Source: Candidatus Bathyarchaeota archaeon
GTDB taxonomy: Archaea; Thermoproteota; Bathyarchaeia; 40CM-2-53-6; RBG-13-38-9
Assembly: GCA_026015185.1 (NCBI GenBank)
Contig: JAOZGX010000103.1
Coordinates: 2,127 to 66,126, forward strand
Direction of reading: 5' to 3'
DNA length: 64,000 nucleotides
A program made the translations under genes and the position numbers. The notes under the pieces were generated by a model that worked only from the letters and a program-made list of their open reading frames with translations, did not search any database and was not told the origin of the DNA. Of this stretch, positions 5,958 to 57,644 are shown in pieces (the stretch's first letter is position 1; every line of letters starts with the position of its first letter).

Positions 5958-6989
5958 ATGCTGGAAGATGAATTAAAATCCCTTACAATAAAAGAAGGCG
6001 CTATCCGAGCTGGAATCGCACGCAGGGAAGCTTTTTCCAATTCACCACAATCTGCGGACATGCGGTATGTAGAGCCATGGGCCAATGCTGTAGTTTCATT
6101 TGCCCTGACCCCGGGTACTTGGTGGATCGAGGATTATCTAGGTAAAGTCACCCGAATGGTGCAGAAAGCCAATGTATTCACATACTATCGCAAGACATAT
6201 TTCATCGGGGAAATCATCAAGAAACGGATAGAGGCTGCTGGATACAAGGCTCATAATATTATTCCAAATGCAATATACCGTCCCGATCATACGTTTCATA
6301 AAGAAAATCCAGATCTTGATATAAAACCACCTTTATCTTTGCGGTACATGGCTGTTGGAGCTGGTGTTGGGGCATTTGGTTGGAGCGGAAATGTCTTGGT
6401 ACCAGGAGCTTGGTCTAATATTTATTTAGGGGGAGTGATAACAGATGCTTTGCTTCAACCTGATGATCTTTTAGAAGATAACCTTTGTGATAATTGTCGC
6501 ATTTGCGCCCGCGTTTGCCCAACAGGTTTTATCCACCAAAATGAAGAAACCAGCATGGTTATTGGCGGACGTAAACACATCCATAACAAAAAACTTAGCG
6601 ATTTCCGTTGTCTCATTGGTTGTGGAGGGTATACAGGGATTTCTAAGGACGGTAAGTGGAGTACTTGGTCAACAGGCCGGACTATTCTGCCAGAAGACGA
6701 CTTGCTGCTTCCCGATATCTTTGTAAAATTACGTAAAGACCCGACCAATGTCGATGCCAATCGCAATTTAGCCTTAGAGTCTCGCGGAGTTCTGTCCCGC
6801 TCTTTGGAAGCTATGAAACCGACTTGCGCCACATGTTCCGTTGTGTGCAGCGGACCTTTGAAGTATCGTGAAAGGTTGATGAATCTATTATTCAGCTCTG
6901 GAGTTGTTGAAAAGGATGAACAGGGGAATGAAATTGTGATTAAGCGGGATGAAAAAGGAAGGAAAGTCGTAATTAGACCTGAGGGATAA
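5958..6989 (+). CDS. Fe-S cluster protein with a ferredoxin-type CxxCxxCxxxCP motif (QueG/reductive-dehalogenase-like ferredoxin domain)
   Basis: CDNCRICARVCP, plus a second Cys cluster CATCSVVCSGP and CLIGCGGY. No confident family assignment. Confidence 0.4.
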   Translation: MLEDELKSLTIKEGAIRAGIARREAFSNSPQSADMRYVEPWANAVVSFALTPGTWWIEDYLGKVTRMVQKANVFTYYRKTYFIGEIIKKRIEAAGYKAHNIIPNAIYRPDHTFHKENPDLDIKPPLSLRYMAVGAGVGAFGWSGNVLVPGAWSNIYLGGVITDALLQPDDLLEDNLCDNCRICARVCPTGFIHQNEETSMVIGGRKHIHNKKLSDFRCLIGCGGYTGISKDGKWSTWSTGRTILPEDDLLLPDIFVKLRKDPTNVDANRNLALESRGVLSRSLEAMKPTCATCSVVCSGPLKYRERLMNLLFSSGVVEKDEQGNEIVIKRDEKGRKVVIRPEG

Positions 6990-7014
6990 TCGCGTGCGGT
7001 AGCGTGCATGCTAC

Positions 7015-8958
7015 TTAGTGAGATTCAATATTCTGCAGTTTAGGCAAAGTAAAGGTGAATGTAGCCCCTTTTCCTTTACCTGATGACTCAGCCCATATTT
7101 TGCCACCATGGCCATTTATTAATCCTTTTGTGACACTTAGACCTAGACCTGTACCCTTTATATAACCAGATTTTTTGATGATATCCACAAAAGGCTCGAA
7201 AATTCTATCTATATCTTCATTTTTTATACCAATTCCTGTATCTTTTATCTGAACTTGAATACTTTTCTTCATCTTTTCAACGCTTAATTCTATTTTTCCT
7301 TTTTCGGGAGTGAATTTAGAGGCATTGTTTAGTAGGTTCATTAGAGCTTGGCTTAATCTGATGATATCCCCTTTGACAACTAAATTACCCCTTGGAACCT
7401 TAAAGTTGAATCTTTGTTTTTTTCCCTCAATTAATGGTTTAATTTCATTTACGCAATGCTGAATAACTTCTTGGAAGTCTATTGGTTTAAGGTTTAGTCT
7501 CAGCTTTCCAGATTCAATGCGTCGGATATCTAGCAGTTCGTCGACTAGATTTAAAAGGCGTTCAGTATTTCGCTTTACTATTTCTAATTCTAATACTGCT
7601 TGTTTGGGTAATTTACCTGATTTTCCTTCAATAACTCGGTCTACGAAACCTTTAATGGAAACAAGCGGTGTTCTAAGTTCGTGTGTTGCGTCTGAGATAA
7701 ATTTCTCCATCATTTCCGCACGGTCACGCTTTTCTTTTATCTTTCTAAGCTCATTTTCAGTTTGCTTTTTTTTGGTGATGTCACGAAAAATAGTATGGAC
7801 AGACTGCTCATTTTGGTAACTAATTGGAATTGCTATTATTTCGACATCAATCTCTTTGCCATATACGCTGATAAATCTAATTTCTGAGAGCGGTAAATGA
7901 TCTCCACTTTCCACAAGCATCATCTTTTCTTTTATCATATTTTGATATTCGGGATGAATCATACTTGTTATTGATTTTCCTATGAGTTCTTCAGGATTTA
8001 AATAACCAAGAATTTTTGCTGTAGCAGGATTAGCAAATATTATTCTTCCTTTTCTTAGTACAAAGATCGCATCTGGTGAATATTCAACAAGTCGACGATA
8101 ACGTTCTTCACTTTCCAATAATTCCTTAGAATGCTCGTCAATTAATTGTTCTAAAATTTCTGAATAGCTTTTAAATTCTTTCTCTAAAAGTTCGCGTTCA
8201 GTAATATCCTGTCCTATACTATATAGGAAAGTCTTATTTGATATAATTAAGGGCACAATATTAATCAAAAGCCTTTTAGATCTTCCTTGAATAATATAAT
8301 CCACCTTAATTGTTCGGCGACTAATGAAAGGCAATTGTTTTGATGCCTGAATTTTCATAATATCAGGAGGTAAATCAGCGATTTCACCAATCAAATCTTT
8401 TTTATCGCACTCGAAAAAATCAAGGGCTGCTTTATTGGCATCTATGTAACGTCCGTCTTCATTTATAATCATGATTGGGTTTAGAGCACCCTCGAATAAT
8501 ATTTTTTGTTTATAATCAATTTCAAATAATTCTTCTTCTAATTTCCTGAAATCGCTGATATCTTTTAATTCTATTAAAGCTGCCGACTTACCATTGTACT
8601 CAATTTTCTTCAAATCAATATTTACTATTTTTTCTTTATTATCATCGGAATATATTTTGGCTTCATAAGGTACAACAGGAATTCCAGATATGAGTTTAGA
8701 AAAATTTTCAGTGATAGCTGTCATGCCTTCTTTAGAGAAAAATCCTAATTCAAGAAGATTCAGCCCGATTAACTCTTTAATTTTTAAATTAATTAACTCC
8801 TCAACTTTTTGATTGACTGCTAATATTTTTCCTTCCATGGCTGTAATAAAAGCAGCATCGGTTAATTGGTCAAGAGGGATTTTGAATAGAGGAGTGTCTG
8901 GCACTCTTTTATTCTCTTTTAAGTTAATATCTATGATTTTCTCAATTTTATTACTCAA
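7015..8958 (-). CDS. PAS-domain sensor histidine kinase
   Basis: H-box ATHELRTPLVSIKGF; HATPase N-box LMNLLNNASKF; G-boxes DTGIGI and GTGLGLSVTKGLINGHGGKIW. Multiple PAS-like segments. The C-terminal ~250 aa is about 70% identical to 10951..12720. Confidence 0.85.
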   Translation of the reverse strand: MSNKIEKIIDINLKENKRVPDTPLFKIPLDQLTDAAFITAMEGKILAVNQKVEELINLKIKELIGLNLLELGFFSKEGMTAITENFSKLISGIPVVPYEAKIYSDDNKEKIVNIDLKKIEYNGKSAALIELKDISDFRKLEEELFEIDYKQKILFEGALNPIMIINEDGRYIDANKAALDFFECDKKDLIGEIADLPPDIMKIQASKQLPFISRRTIKVDYIIQGRSKRLLINIVPLIISNKTFLYSIGQDITERELLEKEFKSYSEILEQLIDEHSKELLESEERYRRLVEYSPDAIFVLRKGRIIFANPATAKILGYLNPEELIGKSITSMIHPEYQNMIKEKMMLVESGDHLPLSEIRFISVYGKEIDVEIIAIPISYQNEQSVHTIFRDITKKKQTENELRKIKEKRDRAEMMEKFISDATHELRTPLVSIKGFVDRVIEGKSGKLPKQAVLELEIVKRNTERLLNLVDELLDIRRIESGKLRLNLKPIDFQEVIQHCVNEIKPLIEGKKQRFNFKVPRGNLVVKGDIIRLSQALMNLLNNASKFTPEKGKIELSVEKMKKSIQVQIKDTGIGIKNEDIDRIFEPFVDIIKKSGYIKGTGLGLSVTKGLINGHGGKIWAESSGKGKGATFTFTLPKLQNIESH

Positions 8959-9173
8959 AAATAAATGCTCCAGAAAAAGGCAATAAACTATATAATAATA
9001 TCTAATTTTAGGCTTAAAAAAAATTTCTGGAGAGCGTACTGATTGATTATGCTCTTAAAGAAAATGTTAAGAACCAATTATCAATTATTATATACATAAA
9101 GAAATTTCAATTCATATAATATTCTATTGTGATAATTTTCAAACAAAATATCTTTTGAAATGGCGGAAATATT

Positions 9174-9905
9174 TTGAAAAAATATTCTTCTATGATTTCT
9201 GGCTTAGACGACATTCTCGATGGGGGCTTTCCTAGACCCTCATCAATAGGGATTATTGGAGAGGTTGGATCAGGAAAATCTCTTCTATGTTGGAATCTAA
9301 TGATAAATGCATTAAAACAGGAATACAATGTCTTGTATTATCTGACAGAAGAATCAAAGGAAGAAATGAAAGAAAATATATTACAATACGGATGGGATAT
9401 TGATGATTATGAGAATAAGGGAAATCTAAAAGTAGTTGATATTTTTTCAAAAGGTGTTGACTTAGCCAGAGAATCCCTTATGGAACCTGAGGCGTTAATG
9501 AAGGAATCATTTAATTTCTTCGAAATACTCAAGGAAGGAAGGAATTATTATTTTGGCGCTATTCGAGGAAAGGACCTTGTAGTTTTTTTTGACTCATTAT
9601 CAACAATTTTTTTAGCTATGGAAACGAAGAAAGCATTAGCCTTTCTTCAAAATTTAAAAATGGCAACAAGAGTAGCTCGGTGTGTAGGAATAGCCACCCT
9701 TCATACAAAAGTCCATGATGAGATAATTGAAAATATATGCAAAACTAATGCTGATGGAATAATTCAATTAAGTTCTATAGAAAAAGAAAAAGAACTGGAA
9801 TATTATTTGCGAATATTAAAAATGTCAAGATCTAATTTCTATCAGGGAATAGTTAACTATCGTACTTCAGATAAAGGAGTTGCATTTACGAAAGTTAAGA
9901 TATGA
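9174..9905 (+). CDS. KaiC-like / RecA-superfamily single-domain ATPase
   Basis: SGLDDILDGGFPRPSSIGIIGEVGSGKS (Walker A) in the KaiC/RadA-paralog arrangement. Confidence 0.7.
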   Translation: MKKYSSMISGLDDILDGGFPRPSSIGIIGEVGSGKSLLCWNLMINALKQEYNVLYYLTEESKEEMKENILQYGWDIDDYENKGNLKVVDIFSKGVDLARESLMEPEALMKESFNFFEILKEGRNYYFGAIRGKDLVVFFDSLSTIFLAMETKKALAFLQNLKMATRVARCVGIATLHTKVHDEIIENICKTNADGIIQLSSIEKEKELEYYLRILKMSRSNFYQGIVNYRTSDKGVAFTKVKI

Positions 9906-17124: not shown

Positions 17125-18123
17125 TTATAGTTCTATCTCAATCAACAATTTTTCCAAGAGCTCTTTATACCGATTTCTAATAGTTACCTCCGTAACGTTG
17201 GCCACTTCTGCTATCTCTCTCTGCGGCTTTCTTTCATTAGTGAGCACTGTTGCAAGATAAGTAGCTGCAGCTACTATGCCTAGAGGTCCCCGACCGCTGG
17301 TTAGCTTCATTTTCTTGGCAGCCCCAAGTATCTTTATAGCTATAATCTCAGCCGTACCTGAAATTGCTAATTTATTTGAAAGTCTGGAAGCATGACTGCT
17401 ACTTTTCAATAGTGGTACAAAAGAATCCAATTCTTTGATTATGAACCTATAACTTCTCGCTAAATCTTTCCTATTTAAGCTGGAAGCAGTGGCTATCTCC
17501 TCCAACGTTCTTGGGATCCCGCACTTCCTGCATGACAAGTAAATAGTAGCTGCTATTATACTATGGATGGACCTGCCGCGGCTTATTTTCTTCTTAACGG
17601 CTTCCCGGTATATCACGGAAGCCGTTTCCACTATACTCCTTGGGAGATTTAAGGCAGATGAAAGTTTACTAAGCTGCGATAGTGCTACAGCCAAATTTCT
17701 CTCAGTAGCATCGAGAACACGAATTTGTCTCTGCCGCTTTCTGAGAGCATAAAGCTCCAATCTCTGCTTAGAAGATATTTTTCCACCTATTGATCTTTTA
17801 TCTTTCCAATCTATGGTGGTCGACAAACCTTTATCATGAATGGTGTAAGTTATTGGCGCGCCCACGCGTGTTCTTTTAGCTCTTTGTTCGTCGTCAAAAG
17901 CTCTCCACTCTGGTTTAGTGTCTATAATCTTTTCGTCTATTACATAGCCACATTCGATGCAAACAATTTCCGCGATGTCATAATCTCTCATCAAATTCGA
18001 GTTGCCACATTCGGGGCATTTCCTTGGTTTACTCTTTACCGAGATGTGACTTTTAGCACTCTGATCGGTGTGCGCATATATTGTAAGATGTGGTGCTTTA
18101 TCGAACCTTCCCAGAGTGATCAC
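17125..18123 (-). CDS. tfb: Transcription initiation factor IIB (TFB)
   Basis: N-terminal Zn ribbon CPECGNS...CIECGYV, B-finger, two cyclin-fold repeats and the C-terminal HTH (NVTEVTIRNRYKEL). Confidence 0.9.
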   Translation of the reverse strand: MITLGRFDKAPHLTIYAHTDQSAKSHISVKSKPRKCPECGNSNLMRDYDIAEIVCIECGYVIDEKIIDTKPEWRAFDDEQRAKRTRVGAPITYTIHDKGLSTTIDWKDKRSIGGKISSKQRLELYALRKRQRQIRVLDATERNLAVALSQLSKLSSALNLPRSIVETASVIYREAVKKKISRGRSIHSIIAATIYLSCRKCGIPRTLEEIATASSLNRKDLARSYRFIIKELDSFVPLLKSSSHASRLSNKLAISGTAEIIAIKILGAAKKMKLTSGRGPLGIVAAATYLATVLTNERKPQREIAEVANVTEVTIRNRYKELLEKLLIEIEL

Positions 18124-19097: not shown

Positions 19098-20411
19098 ATG
19101 AATGATTTCGATGCTTTTATATCAATAATAGATATTGAAGAGGAACAACTTGCATCAGGAGACGAATCAAAAGGTTCTTGGATTATAATAGAACTTCCAG
19201 AAGGAAGTGATTATACTACAGTAGAAATTGAAGTTGAGGCACCAAATGAACCCAAGATTTGGCATCTATCTGCTGTAGCTCTAGCTTGGATTGTTGATAC
19301 GCAAGAATTCGATGTGTTTGGAGCCTACCCTGATAGAAATTTTGATGTGGAAGTCAAACCTACAAAATATACGCTCACATTAAGTGTAACTCCTTCTGAG
19401 TCAGAGAAGCATATGACAGTCACCGGAGGAGGAGAATACGAAAGTGGGCAAAAAGTTGAATTAAAAACTGCGGAAAAAGTTCCAGGTGCAGAAGGAACTC
19501 AATATATTTTCGAAAAATTCTTGATCAACGGAAAGGAAGAGACTGCAAACCCAACAATCATAACGGTAGACCAAGACTATGATATCGTCATGAAATATAG
19601 TACGCAATACTATCTCACAGTTGAGTCAAGTTACGGTACAACATCTGGTGAAGGGTGGTATGAAGATGGGGATAAATCCTTTGCATCTTTGGATATAGAA
19701 AAGATGAGTTCTGGATTTCCTTATGTCTGGAAATTCAAAAGGTGGAGTGGTGATGCTTCTGGTACAGGGCTAACTTCATCTCCTATTACAATGGACAGAC
19801 CTAAAAAAGCTATTGCAATTTGGGAGCAAGAGTTTGGGTGCTTTATTGCTACAGCTACTTATGGCTCTGAGCTTTCACCTGAAGTAACATTTCTAAGAGG
19901 CTTTAGGGATGACCTAGTTTTAACAACATATGCTGGCAATCAATTTATGCAAGTCTTTAACAAGCTCTATTACTCCTTTAGCCCATCAGTAGCTAGGTTT
20001 GTATACGAGAACAATGATGTTGGAATGGCTATGAAGCTAGCTTTATACCCTCTTTTGGGAATACTCCATGTATCAGCTGTGACCTACTCAATTTTCAGTT
20101 TTACTCCAGAGTTAGCGGTAATCTTGTCTGGCTTTGTCGCTAGTTCATTAATTGGTCTAATTTACTTCACGCCAACCACTTTAGGCCTTACAATGATTAC
20201 GAGAAAATTCAAGGGAACAAAGCTAAATACTGGGCATCTAATGCCTATTGCGATATTGGTCTTTTTGAGTATCTTATCGATTCTCATAGGAGAAATTACA
20301 AGGATCACGATGCTAGTACAGATAGCTACAGCAACTTTTGTACTGTCGATCATCTACCTTACTTCTTTATTTGCGACTATGAAAATAGCCAAACGCACTA
20401 GAATTTTCTAG
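19098..20411 (+). CDS. Cell-surface protein with Ig-like region, CFIATATYGS...LRGFRDD motif and a 4-TM C-terminal anchor (possibly a continuation of 18885..19094)
   Basis: No signal peptide of its own; this would be supplied by the upstream fragment if the TAG is read through or is an error. The CFIATAxYGS motif is typical of archaeal surface-protein anchoring domains. TAG stop. Confidence 0.6.
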   Translation: MNDFDAFISIIDIEEEQLASGDESKGSWIIIELPEGSDYTTVEIEVEAPNEPKIWHLSAVALAWIVDTQEFDVFGAYPDRNFDVEVKPTKYTLTLSVTPSESEKHMTVTGGGEYESGQKVELKTAEKVPGAEGTQYIFEKFLINGKEETANPTIITVDQDYDIVMKYSTQYYLTVESSYGTTSGEGWYEDGDKSFASLDIEKMSSGFPYVWKFKRWSGDASGTGLTSSPITMDRPKKAIAIWEQEFGCFIATATYGSELSPEVTFLRGFRDDLVLTTYAGNQFMQVFNKLYYSFSPSVARFVYENNDVGMAMKLALYPLLGILHVSAVTYSIFSFTPELAVILSGFVASSLIGLIYFTPTTLGLTMITRKFKGTKLNTGHLMPIAILVFLSILSILIGEITRITMLVQIATATFVLSIIYLTSLFATMKIAKRTRIF

Positions 20412-25314: not shown

Positions 25315-26883
25315 ATGCAATCTAAATCTAGTAGAAAAATAGCTGTGATTCTCGCATCAATTTTGATAATCTCATCATTACATGTCCCTTATGCGTTTTC
25401 GCAAACAAATTTGACTCCTAATAGAACGACATCCCCTACCCGTGTTATGGAAGATGAAACTATAAGGATCACTATTGAACTGGAGGGTGCAGGGGATATA
25501 TCTGCATCACCTGTTGATACAATGATGGTTATAGATAAATCAGCCAGCATGGCTGGCGATAAGATCGCTGATGCCAAGACTGCTGCAAAAGCCCTTCTTA
25601 CACTTACCAATGAATTAGATAGGGCTGGTCTAATATCCTTTGGCAGTAGTATAAAAATCAAATATGAATTGGCAATTATGAACTCGACTAATAAAGAGGA
25701 TTTAGAAGACGAGATCGATGACATCACAACTAGTGGGCAGACTAATATATACGATGCCATAATTGCGACCAATGACCTCCTAAATGATTCTCCTAGGCAA
25801 AATGTTCCAAAGGTACAGATTCTTCTTACAGATGGTGCCCACAATTATCCAACAACGCGTCCAGATAGTGATTTCGAAGATCTAGCTGAAGATACAAGGG
25901 ATCAAGGCATCACAATATTCACAATAGGTCTAGGGGTCGACACCAACGAGGAAAGGCTTGGGATGATAGCAAATATCACAGGAGGAAGGTTCTTCTATGC
26001 TCCTACATCTGACGATCTGCCTGAGATATTCAGAGACATCGCAAGGATGTTGGCTTTGGTCGGTACAGACATCGTGGTAACAGAGAGGATCCCTGACTAC
26101 TTGACCTATAATGAAGACGCATCGAAAGACCCTGATGAAAGAAATGATTTTGTAGCCGTACCATTGGGTGTTTCAGATTCGCGCCCGCTACTTGAGCTCA
26201 AATGGAATGTTGGCAGAATGTGGTTGCGGGACGAGTGGAACGTCACTTATACTGTCAAGGCGGAAGACGCTGTGGATACCAGCGGCATTGTGAGCTTCTC
26301 GCAGATAACATACAAAACTCGCGAGGGGCAGTCAGTCACAATAGACCTCTATCAGGGATTAGTTTTTCACAACATATCATTAACAGACCTGATTATAGAC
26401 CCGACTAATGTGATCCAAGGCGATGTGATAAATATCACTGCTACCGTTGATAGCGAGGGCATGATTCAAGATACTTTTCCCGTTGATATAAGGTACGACA
26501 GTACGTTGTTGAACAGGCAGACCGTAACCTTGAGTCCAGGCGAGTCAAAAAACGTAACCTACTCATGGAATACTACTGGTGTGGAGGTTAGAGAGTATAA
26601 CATTACGGTTACCGCGGATCCAGATGAAAATATATGGGAGCAGGACAGGTCAGATAACACAGATAAAGATGAAGTGCGAATATCTACACAAAGCAACCTG
26701 ATAATCTTTTTGTTAATAGGACTCTTTTTCTTGATAATAGCTGTAGCTGGTGTAATAGGCGGTTACCTGTATGAAACAAAGGGAAGAAGATCCCAACCGG
26801 ACTATAGATGGTACTTTGCTGGATGTAGCTTGCGTGCAATATCAAAACTTGCGAAAAGTTCAAATCTAATCAAAGTTCGATAA
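25315..26883 (+). CDS. Secreted vWA-domain + CARDB-domain protein with a C-terminal TM anchor
   Basis: Signal peptide; MIDAS DKSASMAGDKIADAKTAAK (DxSxS), T and D sites; C-terminal CARDB-like beta domain (ITATVDSEGMIQDTFPVDIRYD...). Paralog of 58791..60338. Confidence 0.8.
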   Translation: MQSKSSRKIAVILASILIISSLHVPYAFSQTNLTPNRTTSPTRVMEDETIRITIELEGAGDISASPVDTMMVIDKSASMAGDKIADAKTAAKALLTLTNELDRAGLISFGSSIKIKYELAIMNSTNKEDLEDEIDDITTSGQTNIYDAIIATNDLLNDSPRQNVPKVQILLTDGAHNYPTTRPDSDFEDLAEDTRDQGITIFTIGLGVDTNEERLGMIANITGGRFFYAPTSDDLPEIFRDIARMLALVGTDIVVTERIPDYLTYNEDASKDPDERNDFVAVPLGVSDSRPLLELKWNVGRMWLRDEWNVTYTVKAEDAVDTSGIVSFSQITYKTREGQSVTIDLYQGLVFHNISLTDLIIDPTNVIQGDVINITATVDSEGMIQDTFPVDIRYDSTLLNRQTVTLSPGESKNVTYSWNTTGVEVREYNITVTADPDENIWEQDRSDNTDKDEVRISTQSNLIIFLLIGLFFLIIAVAGVIGGYLYETKGRRSQPDYRWYFAGCSLRAISKLAKSSNLIKVR

Positions 26884-29063: not shown

Positions 29064-29453
29064 TTATTTCTTATATAGAGCCCCTAGGACAGGGCCATAA
29101 ACAAGCCTCACGAAAAATCCAACGATACCCCACATAACCGCCAAAGGAATCATCTGTAGACTCAGAACAAAAAATGAAATCGGATATAATCCCACAAAGA
29201 CTAACCAAATTATGAGACTATAGATAAGACCCTTCATGACACCTTTACCAGGAACTACATTATAGACTTTGGCATATATTGCGCCAAATATAGTGCCCCA
29301 GATTAAATTGAGTGCTATCTGGACTATAATCCAATTTGTCATGCTAGGAGCGGCTCCCCAGAGTCCCATACTGAAGCCTACAAATCCAACAATAAGGCTT
29401 GTTATTCCACCGGCTATTCCTGCAATAGCGCCAGCGCTAGTACCACTTTTCAT
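29064..29453 (-). CDS. Small 4-TM membrane protein, member 2 of the paralog family
   Basis: AGAIAGIAGG ... VPGKGVMKGLIYSLIIW ... GALYKK. Confidence 0.6.
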   Translation of the reverse strand: MKSGTSAGAIAGIAGGITSLIVGFVGFSMGLWGAAPSMTNWIIVQIALNLIWGTIFGAIYAKVYNVVPGKGVMKGLIYSLIIWLVFVGLYPISFFVLSLQMIPLAVMWGIVGFFVRLVYGPVLGALYKK

Positions 29454-29637: not shown

Positions 29638-31089
29638 TTAATGAGGGCGTTTACTCTTTCTACCAACTCTATAAGTCAGAATTATTGCAGCTAAAGCTAT
29701 TATAAGAGCTATAATCGCTATTGTTTCTAGAATTGGAGGGCTCACTTGAGCAGGTATTACTGGTTCTCCCTGTCTCATACGTTCTGCTTCTGCTCTCATT
29801 TTGACCAGATGTTCCCTCATCGGAGCATATCCTTCCCAATGCATGTAATCCGAGCTCTCATGGAAAGCACCTTGGAACATTCGGTTATGCCATTGTTCTA
29901 GCATTAAGTAGAGATCTTGCTCTATAGGGGTAGGAGAGGTATAGAAAGCAAGCATAAATGGATAGTTGTATGGATAAGTCTCTGGCTTCTGGATCACCCC
30001 CTCCTCGTACAGCTCTGCGACTAATCTTACACCTTCTGCAAGCAAATGAATTGACTCCTTAGTTGTAGCTTCATATTGTGTAAACTGTTTATCTATATAC
30101 GACTCTGAGTGGCATCTAGAGCAAATCTGTATTTCTTTCTGCCTCACACTTTGGAATTCTTCATCTGATAATCTAGCTATTCTCAAATCCTTTACAACAT
30201 CAAGAAGAACGCCTGGTTCGCCTTCAGGGGTGAGAACTGCGAGACCTTTTAAAACTTCAGCATTATCTTCTGCCCACTCTGGATCATCTGCTAAAGGCCC
30301 AACACCAGGGCCTAGTAGGCCATAAAAACCATAGGCTGTGATAGAATTATGATCTCCGTTGTCCATATGACATGTGATACAAACTGGGGCTTGATTGGGC
30401 CACTGTTCGTTATAAGGATAATCCCAAGTATAGTTTTCTCCTCTTGTATCATAGATTATGCCATGCTTTGAGCTTATGAACATTTCATAAGTTGGGTGGT
30501 CAAATCCCATGTGACAGGTTCTACATGCCTCTGGTTTTCTAGCCTCAATAACAGAGAATGTATGCCTAGTATGGCAAGAGTCGCATTTTGCTCCAGGCGT
30601 ATCAGCGACACCAGGTGTACTTGGTCCCCAATTTGGAATGTCTCCTGACGCTCCAATTCTATGGCAGTAACCGCAACCCTTCCACTTTATTGTTTCATTT
30701 ATTTGCAGCACATTCTCGGCTACGACCTCCATTGCAAGCCATGCCAGATGATGTTTTCCTTCAACGAATTGCTCAACCCTTTGGGGATGGCATGATTTAC
30801 ATGGCGTTTCAGTTGGCATTACTAAAGCTTCATGATTCTGGCCATGGCAGGTATCACAATAGATTTCGTTTTGAGCATGTTTACTCATATTCCAAGATTG
30901 GACCAATCCAGGCATAGTTGTTACATGACAATTTATGCAATCTTGACCAGTATAATTGCCCTTCATCTGCTGGGCCTGAACTGCAATAATGCTCTCTTCT
31001 GCATTGCTCAAGGTATAGTTACTAAAAAGCAAAGAAGAAGTGGTGAATGAAATTAGAAGCAAAATGAATATGATACTGTTATATCGCAT
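29638..31089 (-). CDS. Octaheme c-type cytochrome (HAO/octaheme-reductase-like), signal peptide and C-terminal TM anchor
   Basis: Eight CxxCH motifs read in the translation: CINCH, CDTCH, CKSCH, CGYCH, CDSCH, CRTCH, CITCH, CSRCH. The likely start is MRYNSIIFILLLISF. C-terminal hydrophobic helix plus RKSKR. Confidence 0.8.
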   Translation of the reverse strand: MRYNSIIFILLLISFTTSSLLFSNYTLSNAEESIIAVQAQQMKGNYTGQDCINCHVTTMPGLVQSWNMSKHAQNEIYCDTCHGQNHEALVMPTETPCKSCHPQRVEQFVEGKHHLAWLAMEVVAENVLQINETIKWKGCGYCHRIGASGDIPNWGPSTPGVADTPGAKCDSCHTRHTFSVIEARKPEACRTCHMGFDHPTYEMFISSKHGIIYDTRGENYTWDYPYNEQWPNQAPVCITCHMDNGDHNSITAYGFYGLLGPGVGPLADDPEWAEDNAEVLKGLAVLTPEGEPGVLLDVVKDLRIARLSDEEFQSVRQKEIQICSRCHSESYIDKQFTQYEATTKESIHLLAEGVRLVAELYEEGVIQKPETYPYNYPFMLAFYTSPTPIEQDLYLMLEQWHNRMFQGAFHESSDYMHWEGYAPMREHLVKMRAEAERMRQGEPVIPAQVSPPILETIAIIALIIALAAIILTYRVGRKSKRPH

Positions 31090-31171
31090 CCTCTTCAATG
31101 GGATTAGCTCCAAATAAAAATAGTCTATCAATACATTCTATGTTTTTTATTTATTTAATAATTTGCATGTA

Positions 31172-32485
31172 TCAATCGAGTCGGAATAGCTTTTTTGCAG
31201 TTTTTAATGTATTAATATCGCTGTACTCCGCCGCTTTCCTCAAATTCATTACAGGATCGTATAGAATTCTCTCTGTTATTACCTGTGTTAAATCTTCAAT
31301 TACTTTTTTTTCCTTGACATCCATTTTTCCAAGCATTTTCAGTGCTTTTTTCAACTCTTTTAGCCTGATCTCTTCCGCTTTACTGCATAAGTTCGTCACA
31401 ATTGGCTCTGCTTCCTCACGTTTTAATATAATCTTGAACAACTTCAAATCATCATCAATCATCGCTTCGGCCTTTTCTGCCTGTTTGAGACGTTTTTTAA
31501 GATTTAACTCTGCAATTTCGCGTAAATCATCGATATCATAAAGCTCTACATTTAGTAATTCACCGATGCTTTCCTCAACATTCCTAGGTTGAGAGATGTC
31601 CATGACGAATATTTTCTTCATTTTCCTTGCATTCAGGGCATCTTGAAAAGCTTCTTTTGTTAGTGTATAATGTGGAGCAGCTGTGGCAACGATTACTGCA
31701 TCAACTTCAACAATAACACTATTTAGATTTATGAATGGAACTGGAATTCCATTCAAAACTTTCGCAAGTTTCTTGCTGGTTTCATAAGTTCTATTTACTA
31801 TGTATATTTTAGTCTGCTTCTTAGAAACCAATGCTTTGGTTAAAAGTCTACCAGTTTTTCCTGCACCAATAATAGCAATCTTCTTTTTATTTAGATTGCC
31901 AAGTTTTGATTCCAATAGTTTAACTGCTGCAGATGCTATTGAAACCGCGCCTTTATTTATTTTTGTTTCAAATCTTACTTTCTTTCCTGTTTTTATTGCT
32001 CGATTAAAAGTTGAATCTAGAATTGATCCTGAAGTATGATATTTCTTGGATTTTTCAAGAGCTGCTTGAATCTGGCCAAGAATCTGGTCTTCGCCAACCA
32101 TCATGGACTCTAAGCCTGAAGCCAGTCTCATAAGATGGGTTAATGCATCAATTTTGAACGATTTCTCTATGAATTTATTGAATTCATTCTTGCTTAATTC
32201 AGCACTCTTTCTCCAGTACTCCTCGATCTTCGTTCCAGTTTTTCTTAAGTTAGATTCTTTTGCAACAGCGTAAATTTCAACTCGGTTACATGTTTGCAAT
32301 ATGATGCATTCTTCAGCACAACTCAATGAAAGTAATTCTTCTTGAACTCCATTTGGATCCTTAAAGGTCACTTTTTCTAAATATACCATTGAAAATTTCT
32401 TATGCGTAAAACGAAGATTGATTAAACTATCAATTCCTTCTTGAGCTTCTACGAATCCATTAGCGTTTGACGATCTTTTAGCCAA
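31172..32485 (-). CDS. hemA: Glutamyl-tRNA reductase
   Basis: Catalytic-Cys signature QTCNRVEIY; NADPH Rossmann IAIIGAGKTGRL; C-terminal dimerisation helix. Confidence 0.9.
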   Translation of the reverse strand: MAKRSSNANGFVEAQEGIDSLINLRFTHKKFSMVYLEKVTFKDPNGVQEELLSLSCAEECIILQTCNRVEIYAVAKESNLRKTGTKIEEYWRKSAELSKNEFNKFIEKSFKIDALTHLMRLASGLESMMVGEDQILGQIQAALEKSKKYHTSGSILDSTFNRAIKTGKKVRFETKINKGAVSIASAAVKLLESKLGNLNKKKIAIIGAGKTGRLLTKALVSKKQTKIYIVNRTYETSKKLAKVLNGIPVPFINLNSVIVEVDAVIVATAAPHYTLTKEAFQDALNARKMKKIFVMDISQPRNVEESIGELLNVELYDIDDLREIAELNLKKRLKQAEKAEAMIDDDLKLFKIILKREEAEPIVTNLCSKAEEIRLKELKKALKMLGKMDVKEKKVIEDLTQVITERILYDPVMNLRKAAEYSDINTLKTAKKLFRLD

Positions 32486-32838: not shown

Positions 32839-33675
32839 CTATCGCTTGGAGCCTCTGACTTTAATGCTGATAACCGACTCAGCGACCTCTTTTATCTTCT
32901 CTGATGCTATATCTTGCTTTTCGATTATTGCTTTGGCAGTTGGATCGTTAGCCATTAACTCAACAGGGAAAAAGGTCTCATCTATAACATCAACTTGTTG
33001 AAAACCAGCTTTCTTTATCATTTGGAGATATTCATCTTTCTTAATCGCACCAGACAGACAACCGATGTATGCTTCAACGCTATTCTTAATCAGATCAGGA
33101 AGTTCTTTTAGCAATACTATGTCAGAGATCATCAGTCTACCTCCAGGTTTGAGCACTCTAAAAGCTTCGTTAAAGACTCTTTGCTTGTCGGGTGAGAGAT
33201 TAATTACACAATTTGAGACTATTATATCAACTGAATTATCAGCAGCAGGCAGATTCTCTATTTCTCCAAGCCTGAACTCAACATTCTTAAAATCGCTTTT
33301 TGTTGCGTTTTCTCTTGCTTTCTCGACCATCTCAGGCGTCATATCTATACCGATAACTTTTCCATTCTCACCAACTTTTTTCGCTGCAAGGAAACAGTCA
33401 AGGCCTGCACCCGAACCAAGATCAAGCACAGTCTCCCCTTCCTTTAAACCAGCAAGTGCTGTTGGATTTCCACAACCAAGACCCAAATTCGCACCTTCAG
33501 GAACAACTTTGAGTTCTTCATCAGTATAACCAATATTCTTGCTGATATTTTGAGCCATATCGGCGCCTCCACAACAAGAATTCATAGGAGCACAGCAAGA
33601 GCTATCCTGTTTAGCTATGTCAGCATAACCTTCTCTAACAACTTTCCTTACTTTCTTTTCTTCCACATTAATCAC
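32839..33675 (-). CDS. arsM: Arsenite S-adenosylmethionine methyltransferase
   Basis: N-terminal vicinal cysteines SSCCAPMNSCCGG, LGLGCGNPTALAGLKEGETVLDLGSGAGLD (SAM motif I), IVSNCVINLSPDK and AYIGCLSGA. This pattern of conserved Cys plus the UbiE-like fold is diagnostic of ArsM/AS3MT. TAG stop. Confidence 0.85.
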   Translation of the reverse strand: MINVEEKKVRKVVREGYADIAKQDSSCCAPMNSCCGGADMAQNISKNIGYTDEELKVVPEGANLGLGCGNPTALAGLKEGETVLDLGSGAGLDCFLAAKKVGENGKVIGIDMTPEMVEKARENATKSDFKNVEFRLGEIENLPAADNSVDIIVSNCVINLSPDKQRVFNEAFRVLKPGGRLMISDIVLLKELPDLIKNSVEAYIGCLSGAIKKDEYLQMIKKAGFQQVDVIDETFFPVELMANDPTAKAIIEKQDIASEKIKEVAESVISIKVRGSKR

Positions 33676-33696: not shown

Positions 33697-33990
33697 TTAT
33701 TTTTCAGCAATCTCTTCCATCATTGGACCTAGTATGCCCTTGACCATTCCTGTAAAATCTTCAACTTTAATCAAAGAAATACATGATACATTCCCATCTT
33801 TCTCCCAGCTTACAACCGCTAATTTATCTCCAGAATGGATTTTTGCCTTTTCTCTTATCTCCTTCGGAAGTACCATTTGACCTCTATCATCTACGCTTAT
33901 TACCGATTCAACCTTGCAACAACTTATTCCTTTTTCAGTTTCTGGACAACAGGATTCTTTTTCGTCGATTTTATCCAATTTAATCATCAT
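33697..33990 (-). CDS. AbrB/SpoVT swapped-hairpin DNA-binding domain protein with an N-terminal CCx8CC motif (candidate metalloid-responsive regulator)
   Basis: ESCCPETEKGISCC then DDRGQMVLPKEIREKAKIHSGDKLAVV (AbrB-domain signature). The CC...CC module resembles the one at the ArsM N-terminus. Confidence 0.6.
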   Translation of the reverse strand: MMIKLDKIDEKESCCPETEKGISCCKVESVISVDDRGQMVLPKEIREKAKIHSGDKLAVVSWEKDGNVSCISLIKVEDFTGMVKGILGPMMEEIAEK

Positions 33991-44129: not shown

Positions 44130-44609
44130 ATGTCCTCGGTATCTGAACTGATATCCTACGCTAATGAAATAGCAACGAAAATGGGTTTGCATAAATCTCT
44201 TGATATCGAAGTTGATTCGAGATTTGGCTTTAATTATTATAGTAATACAAAAGAATTTCATAGAATTAGATTAACGGATTTTAATAAATCAGAACTTTTA
44301 CATGAGCTTGGTCATGCTTACATGTCCGAAAAGTTAACCAAACTTTATAGAATCTTTGAAAAAGTAATGAAGGCATTAAACATTCTCGCTGCAAGGTATG
44401 GCGAAGTTGGTGATTTTGTAAGTAATGTGATTTATAGTATTATTTTGTTTTTGTATTTTCTATTTGGAATCTTTATTGCATTTGAAAATAGTTCACCGGC
44501 AATTTTATTACCATTAATGATATTTGGAATAATTTTAATTATCCCTGTTATTGATGAGTTACTAGCTACGTATTTTGGAAATAAATTCAAGGCGCAAAAA
44601 AGAAAATGA
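44130..44609 (+). CDS. HExxH-motif membrane protein (putative small Zn-metallopeptidase-like)
   Basis: SELLHELGHAYM plus C-terminal TM helices. First gene of a 5-gene overlapping + strand run. Confidence 0.4.
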   Translation: MSSVSELISYANEIATKMGLHKSLDIEVDSRFGFNYYSNTKEFHRIRLTDFNKSELLHELGHAYMSEKLTKLYRIFEKVMKALNILAARYGEVGDFVSNVIYSIILFLYFLFGIFIAFENSSPAILLPLMIFGIILIIPVIDELLATYFGNKFKAQKRK

Positions 44610-44923
44610 ATGATTCTTCATGGGTTTTTGCGATTGAAGAAGATAAGTTAATTGAAGATAGCATGCATGTTGCCTTCCCAAAGGGGATACCAATTATCCT
44701 TATAAAAAAAGAAGGCAAGATTTATGCTGTTTCGAATAAATGCGCTCATATGGCTTGTCCACTTTCAGGAGGGACTCTTGTAGATCATACTCTAACGTGC
44801 CCATGTCATGATTGGAAGTATGACATAAGAACAGGCGAATTTCTTCACGCAAAAGAAATAAAAATACCTATCTATCAATGGAAACTAGATAAAGGCAAAA
44901 TATTTGTAAAAATTGAAGGTTGA
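44606..44923 (+). CDS. Rieske [2Fe-2S] domain protein
   Basis: CAHMACPLSGG ... CPCHDWKY (CxH...CxxH). ATGA overlap with the upstream gene. Confidence 0.75.
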   Translation: MNDSSWVFAIEEDKLIEDSMHVAFPKGIPIILIKKEGKIYAVSNKCAHMACPLSGGTLVDHTLTCPCHDWKYDIRTGEFLHAKEIKIPIYQWKLDKGKIFVKIEG

Positions 44924-45176
44924 AAATATGGTAAAAGTAGTTATGTATACTCTAAGTACTTGCCCTTGGTGTAGGAAAACAAAGCAATTCTTTACCGATA
45001 AAAAGATCCCTTTCGACTTCATAGATTACGATTTGGCAGATGAGAAGGAACAAGAGAGGATAAAGAGTGAAATGTCGAAGTACGGCGGCTCAATAGCTTT
45101 TCCATTTGTAATAATTGGAGAAGAGGCTATTGTTGGATATAACCCTGAGAACTATGCAGAGTTATTGGGGTTGTAG
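44913..45176 (+). CDS. Glutaredoxin-like (NrdH/Grx family) protein
   Basis: CPWC active site in a thioredoxin-fold context (VVMYTLSTCPWCRKTKQFF). TAG stop. Confidence 0.75.
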   Translation: MKVENMVKVVMYTLSTCPWCRKTKQFFTDKKIPFDFIDYDLADEKEQERIKSEMSKYGGSIAFPFVIIGEEAIVGYNPENYAELLGL

Positions 45177-45190
45177 AAAGGAAAATAAAG

Positions 45191-45526
45191 ATGAATGTTG
45201 AATCAAGAAAAAAGGCTCTAAGATATCTGTTTCAAAGAGTAATAGATCCTTTGGGCTACAAATTTAGTCCGGATCAGGAGATAGTTGATTTCCTGCTTGA
45301 ACAAGAGGTATCCTTGGAGCAGAAACATGGAATTCCATTCTGCCCTTGTCAGGGCCTAGCAAATAATCGAGAACAAGATATGAAGATAGTATGCCCTTGC
45401 ATTCCGTATCACAGAGAACATTTTGATGCTATGAAACGATGTTGGTGCGGATTATACGTACACAAGGACGTTACTGATCCTGATAAACTTAGACAAATTC
45501 CTGCTAGTGAGTTCGAAAGTGGTTAA
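45191..45526 (+). CDS. Ferredoxin:thioredoxin reductase catalytic-subunit-like protein
   Basis: CPC-x15-CPC-x14-CWC matches the FTR catalytic CPC...CPC...CHC arrangement, with His replaced by Trp. Confidence 0.65.
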   Translation: MNVESRKKALRYLFQRVIDPLGYKFSPDQEIVDFLLEQEVSLEQKHGIPFCPCQGLANNREQDMKIVCPCIPYHREHFDAMKRCWCGLYVHKDVTDPDKLRQIPASEFESG

Positions 45527-45923
45527 AATGTTCACTGAAGTAGCGAAAGTTAGCGAAATATTCCCTGGTGGAATGAAAGCTGTTGCTTCAAATGGGAAAG
45601 AAATTTTGCTATGCAATTTTGAGGGCAAGATATATGCTGTGGAGAAAAGATGCGGTCATATGAACGCCCCATTAAATCTCGGCACCCTTGAAGGATATAT
45701 TATAACTTGCCCAATGCATCATGTTCAGTTTGACATGAATACAGGTGAAGCATTAAGCCTTCCCATCCCTCATTATTTCGGAAAAGAACCGATGCCTGAT
45801 AAAGTTGATGAGTTTTTCAAATATAGAGGAGAGCTGAGCAAGCACATTAAAGTTCGAAATCTTAAGACATACCCTGTCAAAATAGATGGAGACACTATAA
45901 AGATAGATACTAAGACTTGTTAA
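45507..45923 (+). CDS. Rieske [2Fe-2S] domain protein (second copy)
   Basis: CGHMNAPLNLG ... CPMHHVQF. Confidence 0.75.
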   Translation: MSSKVVKMFTEVAKVSEIFPGGMKAVASNGKEILLCNFEGKIYAVEKRCGHMNAPLNLGTLEGYIITCPMHHVQFDMNTGEALSLPIPHYFGKEPMPDKVDEFFKYRGELSKHIKVRNLKTYPVKIDGDTIKIDTKTC

Positions 45924-49254: not shown

Positions 49255-49309
49255 TAAGAACAAAGATTTGGTTTTTGTTCTTTGCAGATTTTATTGGAAG
49301 TTAATTTTT

Positions 49310-50662
49310 ATGAAGAACAAACCTAATATTGTGGCTAGGCCTCCAGGTAAAAAAGCTAGAAGTCTACTGGAGAAGGATTACCAAATAATCTCTCCTTCAG
49401 TTAGGAGATTAAATCCATTATTTATAGAATCTGCAAGAGATTGTATGATTAAAGATGTAGATGGTAATGAATACATAGATTTTGATTCGGCCTCTGCAAT
49501 CATGAATGTCGGTCATTGTCATCAAGATATCGTTAGTGCAATAAATCAACAATCTAATAAATTAATTCATTATCCTTGGAGCAATTTTTCTAATGAAATA
49601 ATACTCAAGCTAGGGGAAAAATTGATTGACTTATCTCCAGGGACCTTTAATAAAAGAATTTTCTACTGTTCTAGCAATTCCGAGGCAATAGAAATAGCGA
49701 CCAAACTTCTATTCTGGCATACCAGAAAGCCAATTATTCTCGCTTACTCGAACTCATATCATGGTGAAACATTAGCTGCAACTTCGCTTACATCAGATAA
49801 GGCTGTAAGAAGAAGACATACTCCCAAAACATATTTGGATATAATACATTTACCCTATCCCTATTGTTATCGTTGCCCATTTAAGTTGAATTATCCAGAA
49901 TGCGATTATCTATGTTTGGAATATATTGTAGATAATGTGATAGGGAAGATCGCTCCGATTGAAGAAATAAGCGGATTATTCTTTGAATCCATCCAAGGTG
50001 AAGGAGGAATAATAGTTCCTCCACCAGAATATTTCCAGAAGTTAAAAAGATTATTGGATAAATATGACATCCTTTTGGTTGATGATGAAGCTCAAACTAG
50101 TATGGGAAGAACTGGTAAGTGGTTTGGAATAGAAAATTGGAAAATCACACCGTATATGATTTGTTTTTCTAACGCCTTGGCATCTGGTTTGCCTTTGGCA
50201 GTGACGATTTCAAATGCTGATTTAATGGACTGGGAAAGTGAATCTAATATAAATTTCGTTGGAGGTAATACGATTGCCTGTTCTGTGGCATTGCAAGTTA
50301 TAGAGGTAATAAAAAAGGAGCGTCTTCTTGAAAATTCATTCAATCAAGGAAAATACCTAGTGAAACGGTTGAACGAGATGAAAGAAACTTATGATATAAT
50401 CGGCGATGTTAGAGGTAAAGGGTTGATGATTGGTGTAGAGATAATTAAAGGCTCAGCTAATAAACAGCCCAATGAGGATGAAGCCAAGGATATAATGGAT
50501 AAATGCTTCAGAAGAGGCTTAGTTTTCACTATCTGTGGGCTATCAACTTTGAAAATAACGCCTCCTTTGACAATAAAAAGAGACCTCATCGATGAAGGTT
50601 TATCGATCTTCGAAGGCGTATTAAAGGAAGTTTACAGGGAACGCTACAAAAAAAAGAGCTAA
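49310..50662 (+). CDS. Class III pyridoxal-phosphate aminotransferase
   Basis: LLVDDEAQTSMGRTGKWF matches the DE(V/A)QTGxGRTGK PLP-lysine region. The likely start is MKNKPNIV. Confidence 0.8.
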   Translation: MKNKPNIVARPPGKKARSLLEKDYQIISPSVRRLNPLFIESARDCMIKDVDGNEYIDFDSASAIMNVGHCHQDIVSAINQQSNKLIHYPWSNFSNEIILKLGEKLIDLSPGTFNKRIFYCSSNSEAIEIATKLLFWHTRKPIILAYSNSYHGETLAATSLTSDKAVRRRHTPKTYLDIIHLPYPYCYRCPFKLNYPECDYLCLEYIVDNVIGKIAPIEEISGLFFESIQGEGGIIVPPPEYFQKLKRLLDKYDILLVDDEAQTSMGRTGKWFGIENWKITPYMICFSNALASGLPLAVTISNADLMDWESESNINFVGGNTIACSVALQVIEVIKKERLLENSFNQGKYLVKRLNEMKETYDIIGDVRGKGLMIGVEIIKGSANKQPNEDEAKDIMDKCFRRGLVFTICGLSTLKITPPLTIKRDLIDEGLSIFEGVLKEVYRERYKKKS

Positions 50663-57266: not shown

Positions 57267-57644
57267 ATGAAAAATAGTATTGTCGCTGGTGCTATAGCTG
57301 GGCTTGTAGGTGCAGTAGTAGCTGTAATATTTGGCATTTTACTTTGTTTCGTAGGATGGTGTCCAATGCCTACTTCGTATTCTAGCATAGTAATGATTAT
57401 TATTTCTTTAATTTTCGGTGCAATATTTGGCAGAATATATGAGATGATTCAGCGCTCTATTCCGGGTAAAGGTTCTATGAAAGGCCTTAACTTCGGTTTA
57501 TTGATATGGCTAATTTGTAATATCGCAGCTGGTGCTTATGTTGGTTTAGTCGTTAATGAAGTATCTACAGCGATTGGCTTAATCTCTTTTGGTTTCTTCA
57601 CATGGATCGTATACGGATACGTGCTCGGAATACTATACAAGTAG
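57267..57644 (+). CDS. Small 4-TM membrane protein, member 3 of the paralog family
   Basis: AGAIAGLVGA ... IPGKGSMKGLNFGLLIWL ... GILYK. TAG stop. Confidence 0.6.
   Translation: MKNSIVAGAIAGLVGAVVAVIFGILLCFVGWCPMPTSYSSIVMIIISLIFGAIFGRIYEMIQRSIPGKGSMKGLNFGLLIWLICNIAAGAYVGLVVNEVSTAIGLISFGFFTWIVYGYVLGILYK

Follow-up and report, generated by a model that had tools for sequence, protein, structure and literature searches.

A Candidatus Bathyarchaeota contig encodes an HAO-family octaheme cytochrome c without the cross-linking tyrosine

A 64,000-nucleotide stretch of contig JAOZGX010000103.1 from a Candidatus Bathyarchaeota archaeon (hereafter the window) encodes, at 29638..31098 on the (-) strand, an octaheme c-type cytochrome of the hydroxylamine oxidoreductase (HAO) family, PF13447. 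By every alignment tried, the cytochrome is judged to lack the tyrosine through which the oxidising members of this family cross-link their catalytic heme, and by analogy with Kustc0458, epsilon-Hao, and IhOCC the protein is probably a 'reductive-type' HAO acting as a nitrite, NO and/or hydroxylamine reductase. The archaeal host named in the first-pass annotation of this DNA is confirmed by a TFIIB gene, an archaeal marker, at 17125-18123 of the window.

The match of the cytochrome to PF13447 reaches 100.9 bits against a gathering score of 21.9 (E = 9.3e-29, Pfam), and a single-sequence phmmer search of all PDB sequences returned significant matches to HAO-family chains only. A family profile run against the PDB recovered the Brocadia HAO-like protein 6T5E (8e-51), Kustc0458 (6H5L, 1e-50), KsHOX (4N4J, 5e-48), NeHAO (5e-43), HDH (4e-38), and IhOCC (4QO5, 5e-31), with nothing else significant, and aligned the eight CxxCH motifs motif for motif with those of NeHAO, KsHOX, and Kustc0458. 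The fold predicted by AlphaFold, with 74 homologs as input (mean pLDDT of 79, pTM of 0.75), is consistent with this assignment, with the top 11 Foldseek matches of the model all belonging to the HAO family (E of 4e-14 to 7e-11, TM ~0.55) and the next match lying at E > 0.5. The best match of the model is to the reductive enzyme Kustc0458 (E = 3.6e-14, TM 0.57), and helices predicted at residues 332-365, 391-412, and 416-442 would fit the long C-terminal helices of the HAO fold, which are associated with trimerisation.

The first-pass annotation had spoken of an HAO/octaheme nitrite-tetrathionate reductase family; the HAO part of this is upheld by the PF13447, PDB, and fold matches, whilst the nitrite and tetrathionate reductase part is not. 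Membership of ONR (TvNiR)/NrfA was rejected, with no CxxCK motif, which would give a Lys-ligated catalytic heme, and no significant PDB sequence match found, and NrfA structures appearing at Foldseek E > 1 only. Shewanella OTR (1SP3) is absent from the sequence and fold match lists, as is the MccA structure 4RKM, and there is no CX15CH motif of the MccA type, leading to the rejection of both of these families as well. HAO, HDH, and IhOCC have been described as a clade separate from NrfA/ONR, with OTR as an outlier (Soares et al., PMC9250108).

The coding sequence is read here from a TTG codon at 31098 to a stop codon at 29638-29640, giving a precursor of 486 aa that begins MKRMRYNS. The maximal open reading frame (ORF) extends to a further TTG at 31131 (29638..31131, (-), 497 aa), and residue numbers such as Asp211 and His431 follow this 497-aa form unless otherwise stated. 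The TTG at 31098 is invariant in six orthologous loci, lies three codons upstream of Met15, and is preceded in the orthologous loci by GGAG or GAGG spaced 9 nt before it, with the gene call of the 92% identical relative P0001 starting at the same codon. The frame is open and conserved across the signal region in orthologs L089, L091, L094, L007, and L008. Met15 was rejected as the start in favour of the conserved TTG and its upstream GGAG, the residue being Ile in the 92%-identical orthologs; the 483 aa previously given for the mature protein are thus those of a precursor counted from a non-conserved Met. The public gene calls of four orthologs (L089:1324-2652, L090:1321-2649, L091:1210-2538, and L094:246-1574) begin further downstream still, at Met56 (442 aa), dropping the signal peptide, despite an upstream frame that is open, conserved, and preceded by a ribosome-binding site. 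From such calls, annotation pipelines would score the orthologous cytochromes as cytoplasmic.

A regular-expression search of the translation finds eight CxxCH motifs (CINCH, CDTCH, CKSCH, CGYCH, CDSCH, CRTCH, CITCH, and CSRCH) spanning 30109..30939 (-), at 30925-30939, 30844-30858, 30787-30801, 30661-30675, 30571-30585, 30511-30525, 30367-30381, and 30109-30123 (all (-)). The heme 4 motif (30661-30675, (-)) aligns with the NeHAO motif ending at His233 and is by that alignment the catalytic one. All 16 of the 16 Cys residues sit in these motifs, and CxxCK, CX15CH, and CX3-4CH are absent from the translation by the same kind of motif search. Conservation was scored in alignments of 15 and 74 sequences, and all eight motifs are invariant in both, so that the count of eight given in the first-pass annotation stands and does not fall on alignment to the 74 homologs. 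A six-frame scan of the whole window found a single CxxCH in just one other ORF of at least 50 aa, and the rarity of the motif elsewhere indicates that its clustering in the cytochrome is not due to chance.

Kyte-Doolittle (KD) hydropathy resolves exactly two hydrophobic segments in the protein, one N-terminal and one C-terminal, in keeping with the signal peptide and C-terminal anchor that had been proposed for it. The predicted signal sequence, MKRMRYNSIIFILLLISFTTSSLLFSNYTLSNA (31000..31098, (-)), consists of a basic n-region followed by a hydrophobic stretch with KD > 1.6 across residues 6-28 of the 486-aa form; cleavage probably follows SNA, and if it falls after SNA33 the mature cytochrome would comprise ~453 aa. 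The C-terminal segment, ILETIAIIALIIALAAIILTY (29671-29733, (-)), is a putative transmembrane helix and membrane anchor, with a KD maximum of 2.95 over residues 447-480 and an AlphaFold helix at 458-482, and is followed by the basic tail RVGRKSKRPH (29641-29670, (-)), the C-terminus as a whole reading ...PPILETIAIIALIIALAAIILTY-RVGRKSKRPH. A PGF-CTERM/archaeosortase signal was considered at this end and rejected, with no PGF-like motif visible by eye, and the segment is treated as a plain tail anchor.

Alignment with the solved HAOs, as the first-pass annotation had recommended, places a distal Asp-His pair and candidate ligand His residues in the cytochrome and finds the cross-linking Tyr missing. 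The pair Asp211-His212 (30496..30501, (-)) adjoins the heme 6 motif, is invariant in the 74 homologs, and aligns with the segment ...CHSGVDHNNWE... of 4fas, equivalent to Asp267-His268 of NeHAO with the chain numbering checked, which we take to be the distal pair of the catalytic heme. Outside the CxxCH motifs, His100, His127, His190, His212, His223, His261, and His424 are invariant in the 74 homologs, with His85 conserved in at least 90%. These eight conserved residues would supply the number needed for seven bis-His hemes and one catalytic distal His, the architecture reported for HAO, with its seven bis-His hemes and one catalytic heme (PMC8042395).

The position of the heme-cross-linking Tyr of the oxidising HAOs is occupied by His431-Trp432 (29836..29841, (-)), where no Tyr is found, with Tyr467 of NeHAO aligned on His431 in the HMMER profile alignment. 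When the C-terminal regions of NeHAO, KsHOX, the Brocadia HAO, and Kustc0458 were aligned with 21 family members in three MAFFT modes, Tyr467 of NeHAO and Tyr415 of KsHOX shared one column in every mode. That column holds His in every archaeal-clade protein; the bacterial relatives have Leu or Phe there, and Kustc0458 has Trp. One column further on, Trp432 does not vary across the family, so that a shift of one residue would place Trp, not Tyr, at the site.

In the oxidising HAOs this Tyr cross-links the catalytic heme of the neighbouring subunit and ruffles it, forming the P460 cofactor. The Kustc0458/7 complex, which lacks the Tyr, forms NO from nitrite, is active as a reductase of NO and NH2OH as well, and is unable to oxidise either hydroxylamine or hydrazine, and whether the Tyr is present or lacking has been argued to encode the direction of catalysis (Ferousi et al., PMC8042395). 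Nitrite and hydroxylamine reduction is likewise attributed to the Tyr-less epsilon-Hao in passing citations (PMC8042395, PMC10949509), and IhOCC, from the archaeon Ignicoccus, has been described as an octaheme nitrite reductase that lacks P460 (PMC9250108). With the cross-linking Tyr replaced by His/Trp, the Bathyarchaeota enzyme should likewise run reductively. The precursor would be exported via its N-terminal signal sequence, eight hemes would be attached at the eight CxxCH motifs, and the cytochrome, probably a trimer, would be anchored by its C-terminal helix to the external side of the cytoplasmic membrane. By analogy with the solved HAOs, the seven bis-His hemes may wire electrons to heme 4, a putative five-coordinate catalytic heme whose distal side would carry the conserved Asp-His pair. 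There, nitrite, NO and/or hydroxylamine would be converted to NO or ammonium, serving detoxification or as an electron sink. It is the direction of catalysis, the substrate, and the trimeric state that we infer in this scheme.

Amongst the named HAO systems, Kustc0458 (HAOr, Kuenenia stuttgartiensis, 6H5L) is the best structural match, sharing the HAO fold, the eight-heme layout, the Asp-His pair, and the C-terminal helices, and likewise carrying no cross-linking Tyr, with an aromatic Trp cluster at the spot. It is a demonstrated nitrite, NO, and NH2OH reductase (PMC8042395). However, the two proteins are only ~22% identical, and Kustc0458 is soluble, works with the diheme partner Kustc0457, and resides in the anammoxosome, whereas the archaeal cytochrome bears a membrane anchor at its C-terminus and has no gene for a partner cytochrome in its vicinity. 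The epsilon-Hao (HaoA) of Campylobacterota is also Tyr-less, and a Trp is reported at the Tyr-equivalent position (PMC8940962), with Trp432 of the Bathyarchaeota protein adjoining that column. Compared by that published description, the two differ in that epsilon-Hao is reported to carry a Met eight residues before the Trp (PMC8940962, citing Haase 2017), where the Bathyarchaeota protein has the invariant His424. IhOCC (Igni_0955, Ignicoccus hospitalis, 4QO5) is an archaeal, membrane-associated octaheme protein of the HAO clade without P460, described as a nitrite reductase (PMC9250108, PMC4429474), and is a significant sequence and fold match, but is the most distant of the solved HAO-family matches, at 111 bits against 150-176 for the others and 18% identity. 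The Bathyarchaeia clade is therefore not close to the only characterised archaeal member, its nearest relatives being bacterial. NeHAO (1FGJ/4FAS), KsHOX (4N4J), and HDH (6HIF) share the CxxCH order, the distal His set, the Asp-His pair, and the C-terminal helical bundle, and differ in the double Tyr-heme cross-link (P460) that drives oxidation, the Tyr of which the Bathyarchaeota protein lacks. The NeHAO gene presumably also encodes a C-terminal hydrophobic tail.

The closest database proteins to the cytochrome are 92% and 82% identical, followed by a group at 51–67% identity that includes one protein named from a Bathyarchaeia metagenome-assembled genome (MAG), and beyond these by a very large set of ~410-aa bacterial proteins at 38–44% identity. 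The 11 sequences of the archaeal clade are monophyletic in 200/200 neighbour-joining bootstraps, as is, within it, a 'short form' trio of the query, P0001, and P0002 (200/200), with a mean corrected distance of 0.39 inside the clade versus 1.09 to the bacteria. On these sequences the Bathyarchaeia clade is placed as sister to the very large bacterial family. The bacterial proteins, uncharacterised and from Acidobacteriota, Ignavibacteria/Melioribacteraceae, Fidelibacterota, Nitrospirota, and others, carry all of the motifs, including DY..W.G. They differ in forming a separate clade, in having Leu or Phe, not His, at the Tyr column, and in lacking a C-terminal anchor, which is kept in all 11 archaeal-clade proteins. 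Members of the 51–67% group bear an extra N-terminal extension of ~100 aa, which contains three hydrophobic segments and in which neither His nor Cys is conserved. Ratios of nonsynonymous to synonymous substitution rates (dN/dS) for the cytochrome against its orthologs are 0.09–0.13, showing that the gene is under purifying selection, as expected of a functional gene.

Amongst the best 80 of at least 589 confirmed stretches in a scan of 185,579 species-representative genomes, at least three Bathyarchaeota/Bathyarchaeia loci were found together with one unclassified archaeon at 40% identity, which is a lower bound; a metagenome scan gave at least two archaeal-clade loci amongst the best 80 of 586, also a lower bound. 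HAO-type cytochromes were already known in archaea, with 11 matches in ~300 archaeal proteomes, and archaeal cytochromes c commonly have C-terminal anchors (PMC4429474). One Bathyarchaeota MAG is reported to contain nrfHA (cited in PMC10477458), and our literature search found no dedicated description of an HAO-like or octaheme protein in Bathyarchaeota. At locus L011 (L011:9749-11505, Bathyarchaeia MAG JBAUBP01) an HAO-like gene is split over two frames, with 7 + 1 CxxCH motifs, representing either a frameshifted pseudogene or an assembly error.

Several observations weigh against a reductive HAO in this host. The alignment near the Tyr position requires one gap, and Tyr429, two residues upstream of His431, is invariant in the 15-sequence alignment and present in at least 90% of the 74 homologs; in the oxidative enzymes, the residues aligned with it are not Tyr. 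The surroundings of heme 4 (residues 140-177 of the 486-aa form) are modelled with low confidence. Both the clade and its ~410-aa bacterial sister family appear to be known from sequence alone. Octaheme enzymes are promiscuous, and a physiological substrate cannot be read from sequence. Within ~10 kb of the gene at any Bathyarchaeia locus there is no partner cytochrome, quinol dehydrogenase, NrfH/NapC-type gene, or nitrate, nitrite, or N-oxide gene, and a protein with the WWD motif (CcmC/CcmF/CcsA-type) is absent from all six frames of the window and from ~10 kb around the Bathyarchaeia orthologs. Moreover, a cultured Bathyarchaeum lacks c-type cytochromes and does not reduce nitrite (PMC10477458), and three surveyed Bathyarchaeota genomes have neither a heme c motif nor CcmCF (PMC8351635).

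With regard to cytochrome c maturation, Pfam and NCBIfam were run on practically all window ORFs of 130 aa or more, and every large or membrane ORF in the window has an assignment other than Ccm. A divergently transcribed ResA/TlpA-like thioredoxin is encoded beside the orthologous cytochrome at seven other Bathyarchaeia loci; it is secreted, carries a WCSPC motif, and has a C-terminal anchor like that of the cytochrome, with its best NCBIfam matches being ResA, TlpA, StoA, and DsbE/CcmG, all below their cutoffs. A CBS-domain protein of 147 aa, 75–95% identical among the Bathyarchaeia orthologous loci, lies downstream. The two together mark the neighbourhood at L001 (thioredoxin at 6498-7130, CBS-domain protein at 9073-9516), L002/L003, L005, L006, L009, L010, and L095, with the CBS-domain protein alone on the short contig L096. 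Neither the WCSPC thioredoxin nor the CBS protein has a homolog in the window. Strong purifying selection on all 16 heme-binding Cys residues, together with the thioredoxin beside most orthologs, indirectly suggests that the holo-protein is made. The exception among loci with a readable upstream flank is L004, which has TusA upstream, P-II and Amt downstream, and no thioredoxin. Here (L004:9585-13937), P0006 sits between a TusA-like gene and glnK (P-II)/amt, the only archaeal context with a neighbour from nitrogen metabolism.

No conserved partner emerged from the 73 bacterial loci, where any one neighbour family is shared by at most 7/73. The recurrent neighbours are Rrf2-type regulators (6 loci), NapH-like Fer4_5 polyferredoxins (6), hemerythrin-domain proteins (5, typically at a distance of ~76 bp), and second HAO paralogs (5), with examples from loci L012-L088 at L024:13177-13608, L028:644-1777, and L055:15045-15668, representative identities of which were confirmed. 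In other bacteria, both Rrf2/NsrR regulators and proteins of the hemerythrin type have links to nitrosative stress. These neighbours are weak hints that fit a role with N-oxides or hydroxylamine, and are too few to suggest a conserved operon.

Of the roles proposed in the first-pass annotation, the reduction of N-oxyanions has the best support, from the HAO family and the missing Tyr, with extracellular electron transfer and the reduction of sulfur oxyanions retained as lower-rated rivals. The cytochrome could instead be an electron conduit on the cell surface, carrying fermentative or acetogenic electrons to or from extracellular acceptors such as humics, Fe(III), or a partner cell. Its predicted tethering to the outside of the membrane, its occurrence as a lone cytochrome without N-cycle neighbours, and the anoxic, nitrite-poor sediments that Bathyarchaeia inhabit (PMC12740246, PMC10477458) would suit such a role, and there is a weak Pfam match to MtrC/MtrF domains II/IV (4.7e-12). 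However, this match is limited to generic heme-packing motifs, a compact HAO fold with eight hemes does not reach across an S-layer, and the Asp-His pair, the heme 4 motif, and the full ligand count are invariant family-wide, none of which a pure wire would need. We regard a surface conduit as unlikely.

A second proposal concerns the adjoining gene, hemA (31172..32485, (-), 437 aa), and whether the two genes form a co-regulated unit in which the supply of heme precursor is transcriptionally coupled to the eight-heme protein. The cytochrome does lie directly beside a genuine glutamyl-tRNA reductase gene, as had been noted, with hemA matching TIGR01035 above its cutoff (1.9e-114) and containing GlutR_N, Shikimate_DH, and GlutR_dimer domains, and the cytochrome starts 73 bp downstream of it (40 bp if the maximal ORF is taken) on the same strand. 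Co-regulation would be favoured by this short gap, by the fact that no obvious terminator hairpin was noted after hemA, and by the persistence of the adjacency at 92% identity (L089, L090, L091, and L094) and in the 82% relative L007, despite a synonymous divergence (dS) to the latter of ~0.9. The adjacency is, however, confined to relatives of at least 82% identity, being absent from 8/8 more distant Bathyarchaeia contexts and from the bacterial relatives. Furthermore, the spacer between the two genes (31099..31171, (-)) contains a TATA-like, AT-rich box (AAATTATTAAATAAATAAAAAA, 31143-31164) that starts right after the hemA stop, ~45–65 nt upstream of the TTG, and, with a spacing of 9 nt to the TTG, a GGAG at 31108-31111. 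Five close orthologous loci retain both elements, L007 has AT-rich and GAGG equivalents, and the cytochrome plausibly has its own promoter; a run of five T residues lies 3' of its stop codon.

HemA catalyses the step with which the synthesis of every tetrapyrrole begins (cobalamin and siroheme included) and is not specific to heme, and by textbook biochemistry the host would need it for cobalamin in any case; B12-binding and MtaA-like genes are found near several orthologs. No other hem, ahb, or ccm gene was detected in the 64-kb window with Pfam/NCBIfam. The aminotransferase at 49268-50662 was considered as a possible hemL and rejected, its best match being the acetylornithine aminotransferase family. 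A co-regulated heme-supply and cytochrome unit is thus not supported and is considered quite improbable, and the adjacency is best read as lineage-specific synteny, with the order MscS - cytochrome - hemA - ... - ArsM-like methyltransferase - ABC transporter found in the four 92%-identity loci. The two genes may nonetheless be co-transcribed.

Less likely still is that the cytochrome reduces sulfur oxyanions (sulfite, tetrathionate, or thiosulfate) rather than nitrogen compounds. Multiheme N-oxide reductases often turn over sulfite too, one ortholog adjoins TusA, and rhodanese and sulfur-transport-like genes are found elsewhere in the window. Reducers of nitrite, sulfite, and tetrathionate have also been grouped as relatives (PMC9250108). 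Nevertheless, the protein shows no similarity to OTR or MccA and has no CX15CH copper-site motif, and the sulfur-related neighbours are neither adjacent nor conserved.

An oxidative, HAO/HDH-like enzyme of hydroxylamine or hydrazine oxidation, for example the missing archaeal hydroxylamine oxidoreductase, was rejected on the Tyr column and is very improbable: the protein shares its family with NeHAO, KsHOX, and HDH, some relatives are named 'hydroxylamine dehydrogenase' by the Joint Genome Institute (JGI), and the conserved Tyr429 lies two residues from the cross-link column, but that column holds His (Leu/Phe in relatives) where the known cross-linking Tyr residues co-align in every alignment, and the score of 97.8 bits for the HDH equivalog NF052343 falls short of the cutoff of 900. 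The host, an anaerobic Bathyarchaeota MAG, is not an ammonia oxidiser, no amo genes lie in the window, and oxidative activity is lacking in those Tyr-less HAOs that have been tested to date (PMC8042395).

Bathyarchaeia rank with the most abundant archaea of anoxic sediments, and models usually treat them as cytochrome-free fermenters or acetogens. A reductive HAO would give some of them a route to consume or detoxify nitrite, NO, and hydroxylamine, and would extend the Tyr-less and presumably ancestral group of reductive HAOs by an archaeal branch. Metagenome surveys can easily mis-score such genes as markers of 'hydroxylamine oxidation', as the JGI 'hydroxylamine dehydrogenase' labels illustrate. 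A bolder and rather unlikely extension is that a few Bathyarchaeia lineages acquired and kept a self-contained, membrane-tethered HAO-type reductase as their only outlet for nitrite, NO, hydroxylamine, or extracellular acceptors, one that would draw electrons directly from a membrane complex without a partner cytochrome or quinol dehydrogenase. In most of these lineages the reductase would carry an additional N-terminal membrane domain of three helices and be paired with a ResA/TlpA-like thioredoxin and a CBS protein of its own. If true, this would amount to a minimal and distinct way of reducing N-oxides in a sediment group of very high abundance. The significance of the present cytochrome is incremental, the family, the Tyr rule, and archaeal members such as IhOCC being already known; it is a rare, otherwise ordinary member of the HAO family in a lineage where c-type cytochromes are unusual.

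Amongst the other genes of the window, polytopic membrane proteins of ~125–135 aa with no Pfam or NCBIfam match occur in four copies, at 29064-29453 (-), 1007-1414, 57267-57644, and 57924-58331 (+). The copy at 29064-29453, of 129 aa, lies directly downstream of the cytochrome and is absent at that position in L089, L090, L091, and L094; it was rejected as a partner of the cytochrome, being missing in these 92%-identical relatives and having three paralogs elsewhere in the window.

On the far side of hemA, an ArsM-like arsenite methyltransferase (32839-33675, (-), NF008823, 1.8e-109) stands beside a gene for a 97-aa AbrB-fold protein (33697-33990, (-)) that matches the HgcAB-associated HgcC (NF040962, 5e-35, above the 70-bit cutoff), with no HgcA or HgcB among the annotated window ORFs. 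The 437-aa protein at 19098-20411 (+) carries a CFI-box-CTERM domain (NF041770, 8.8e-20) and matches no other family. Paralogs combining VWA and CARDB are encoded at 25315-26883 (+) and 58791-60338 (-), and the 90% cluster of the former includes one member labelled [Eubacterium] cellulosolvens (WP_455276195.1), apparently a contaminated or mislabelled record. Finally, synteny with the annotated relative L089 indicates a cluster of Rieske, glutaredoxin, ferredoxin:thioredoxin-reductase-beta-like, and Rieske genes at ~44606-45923 (+).

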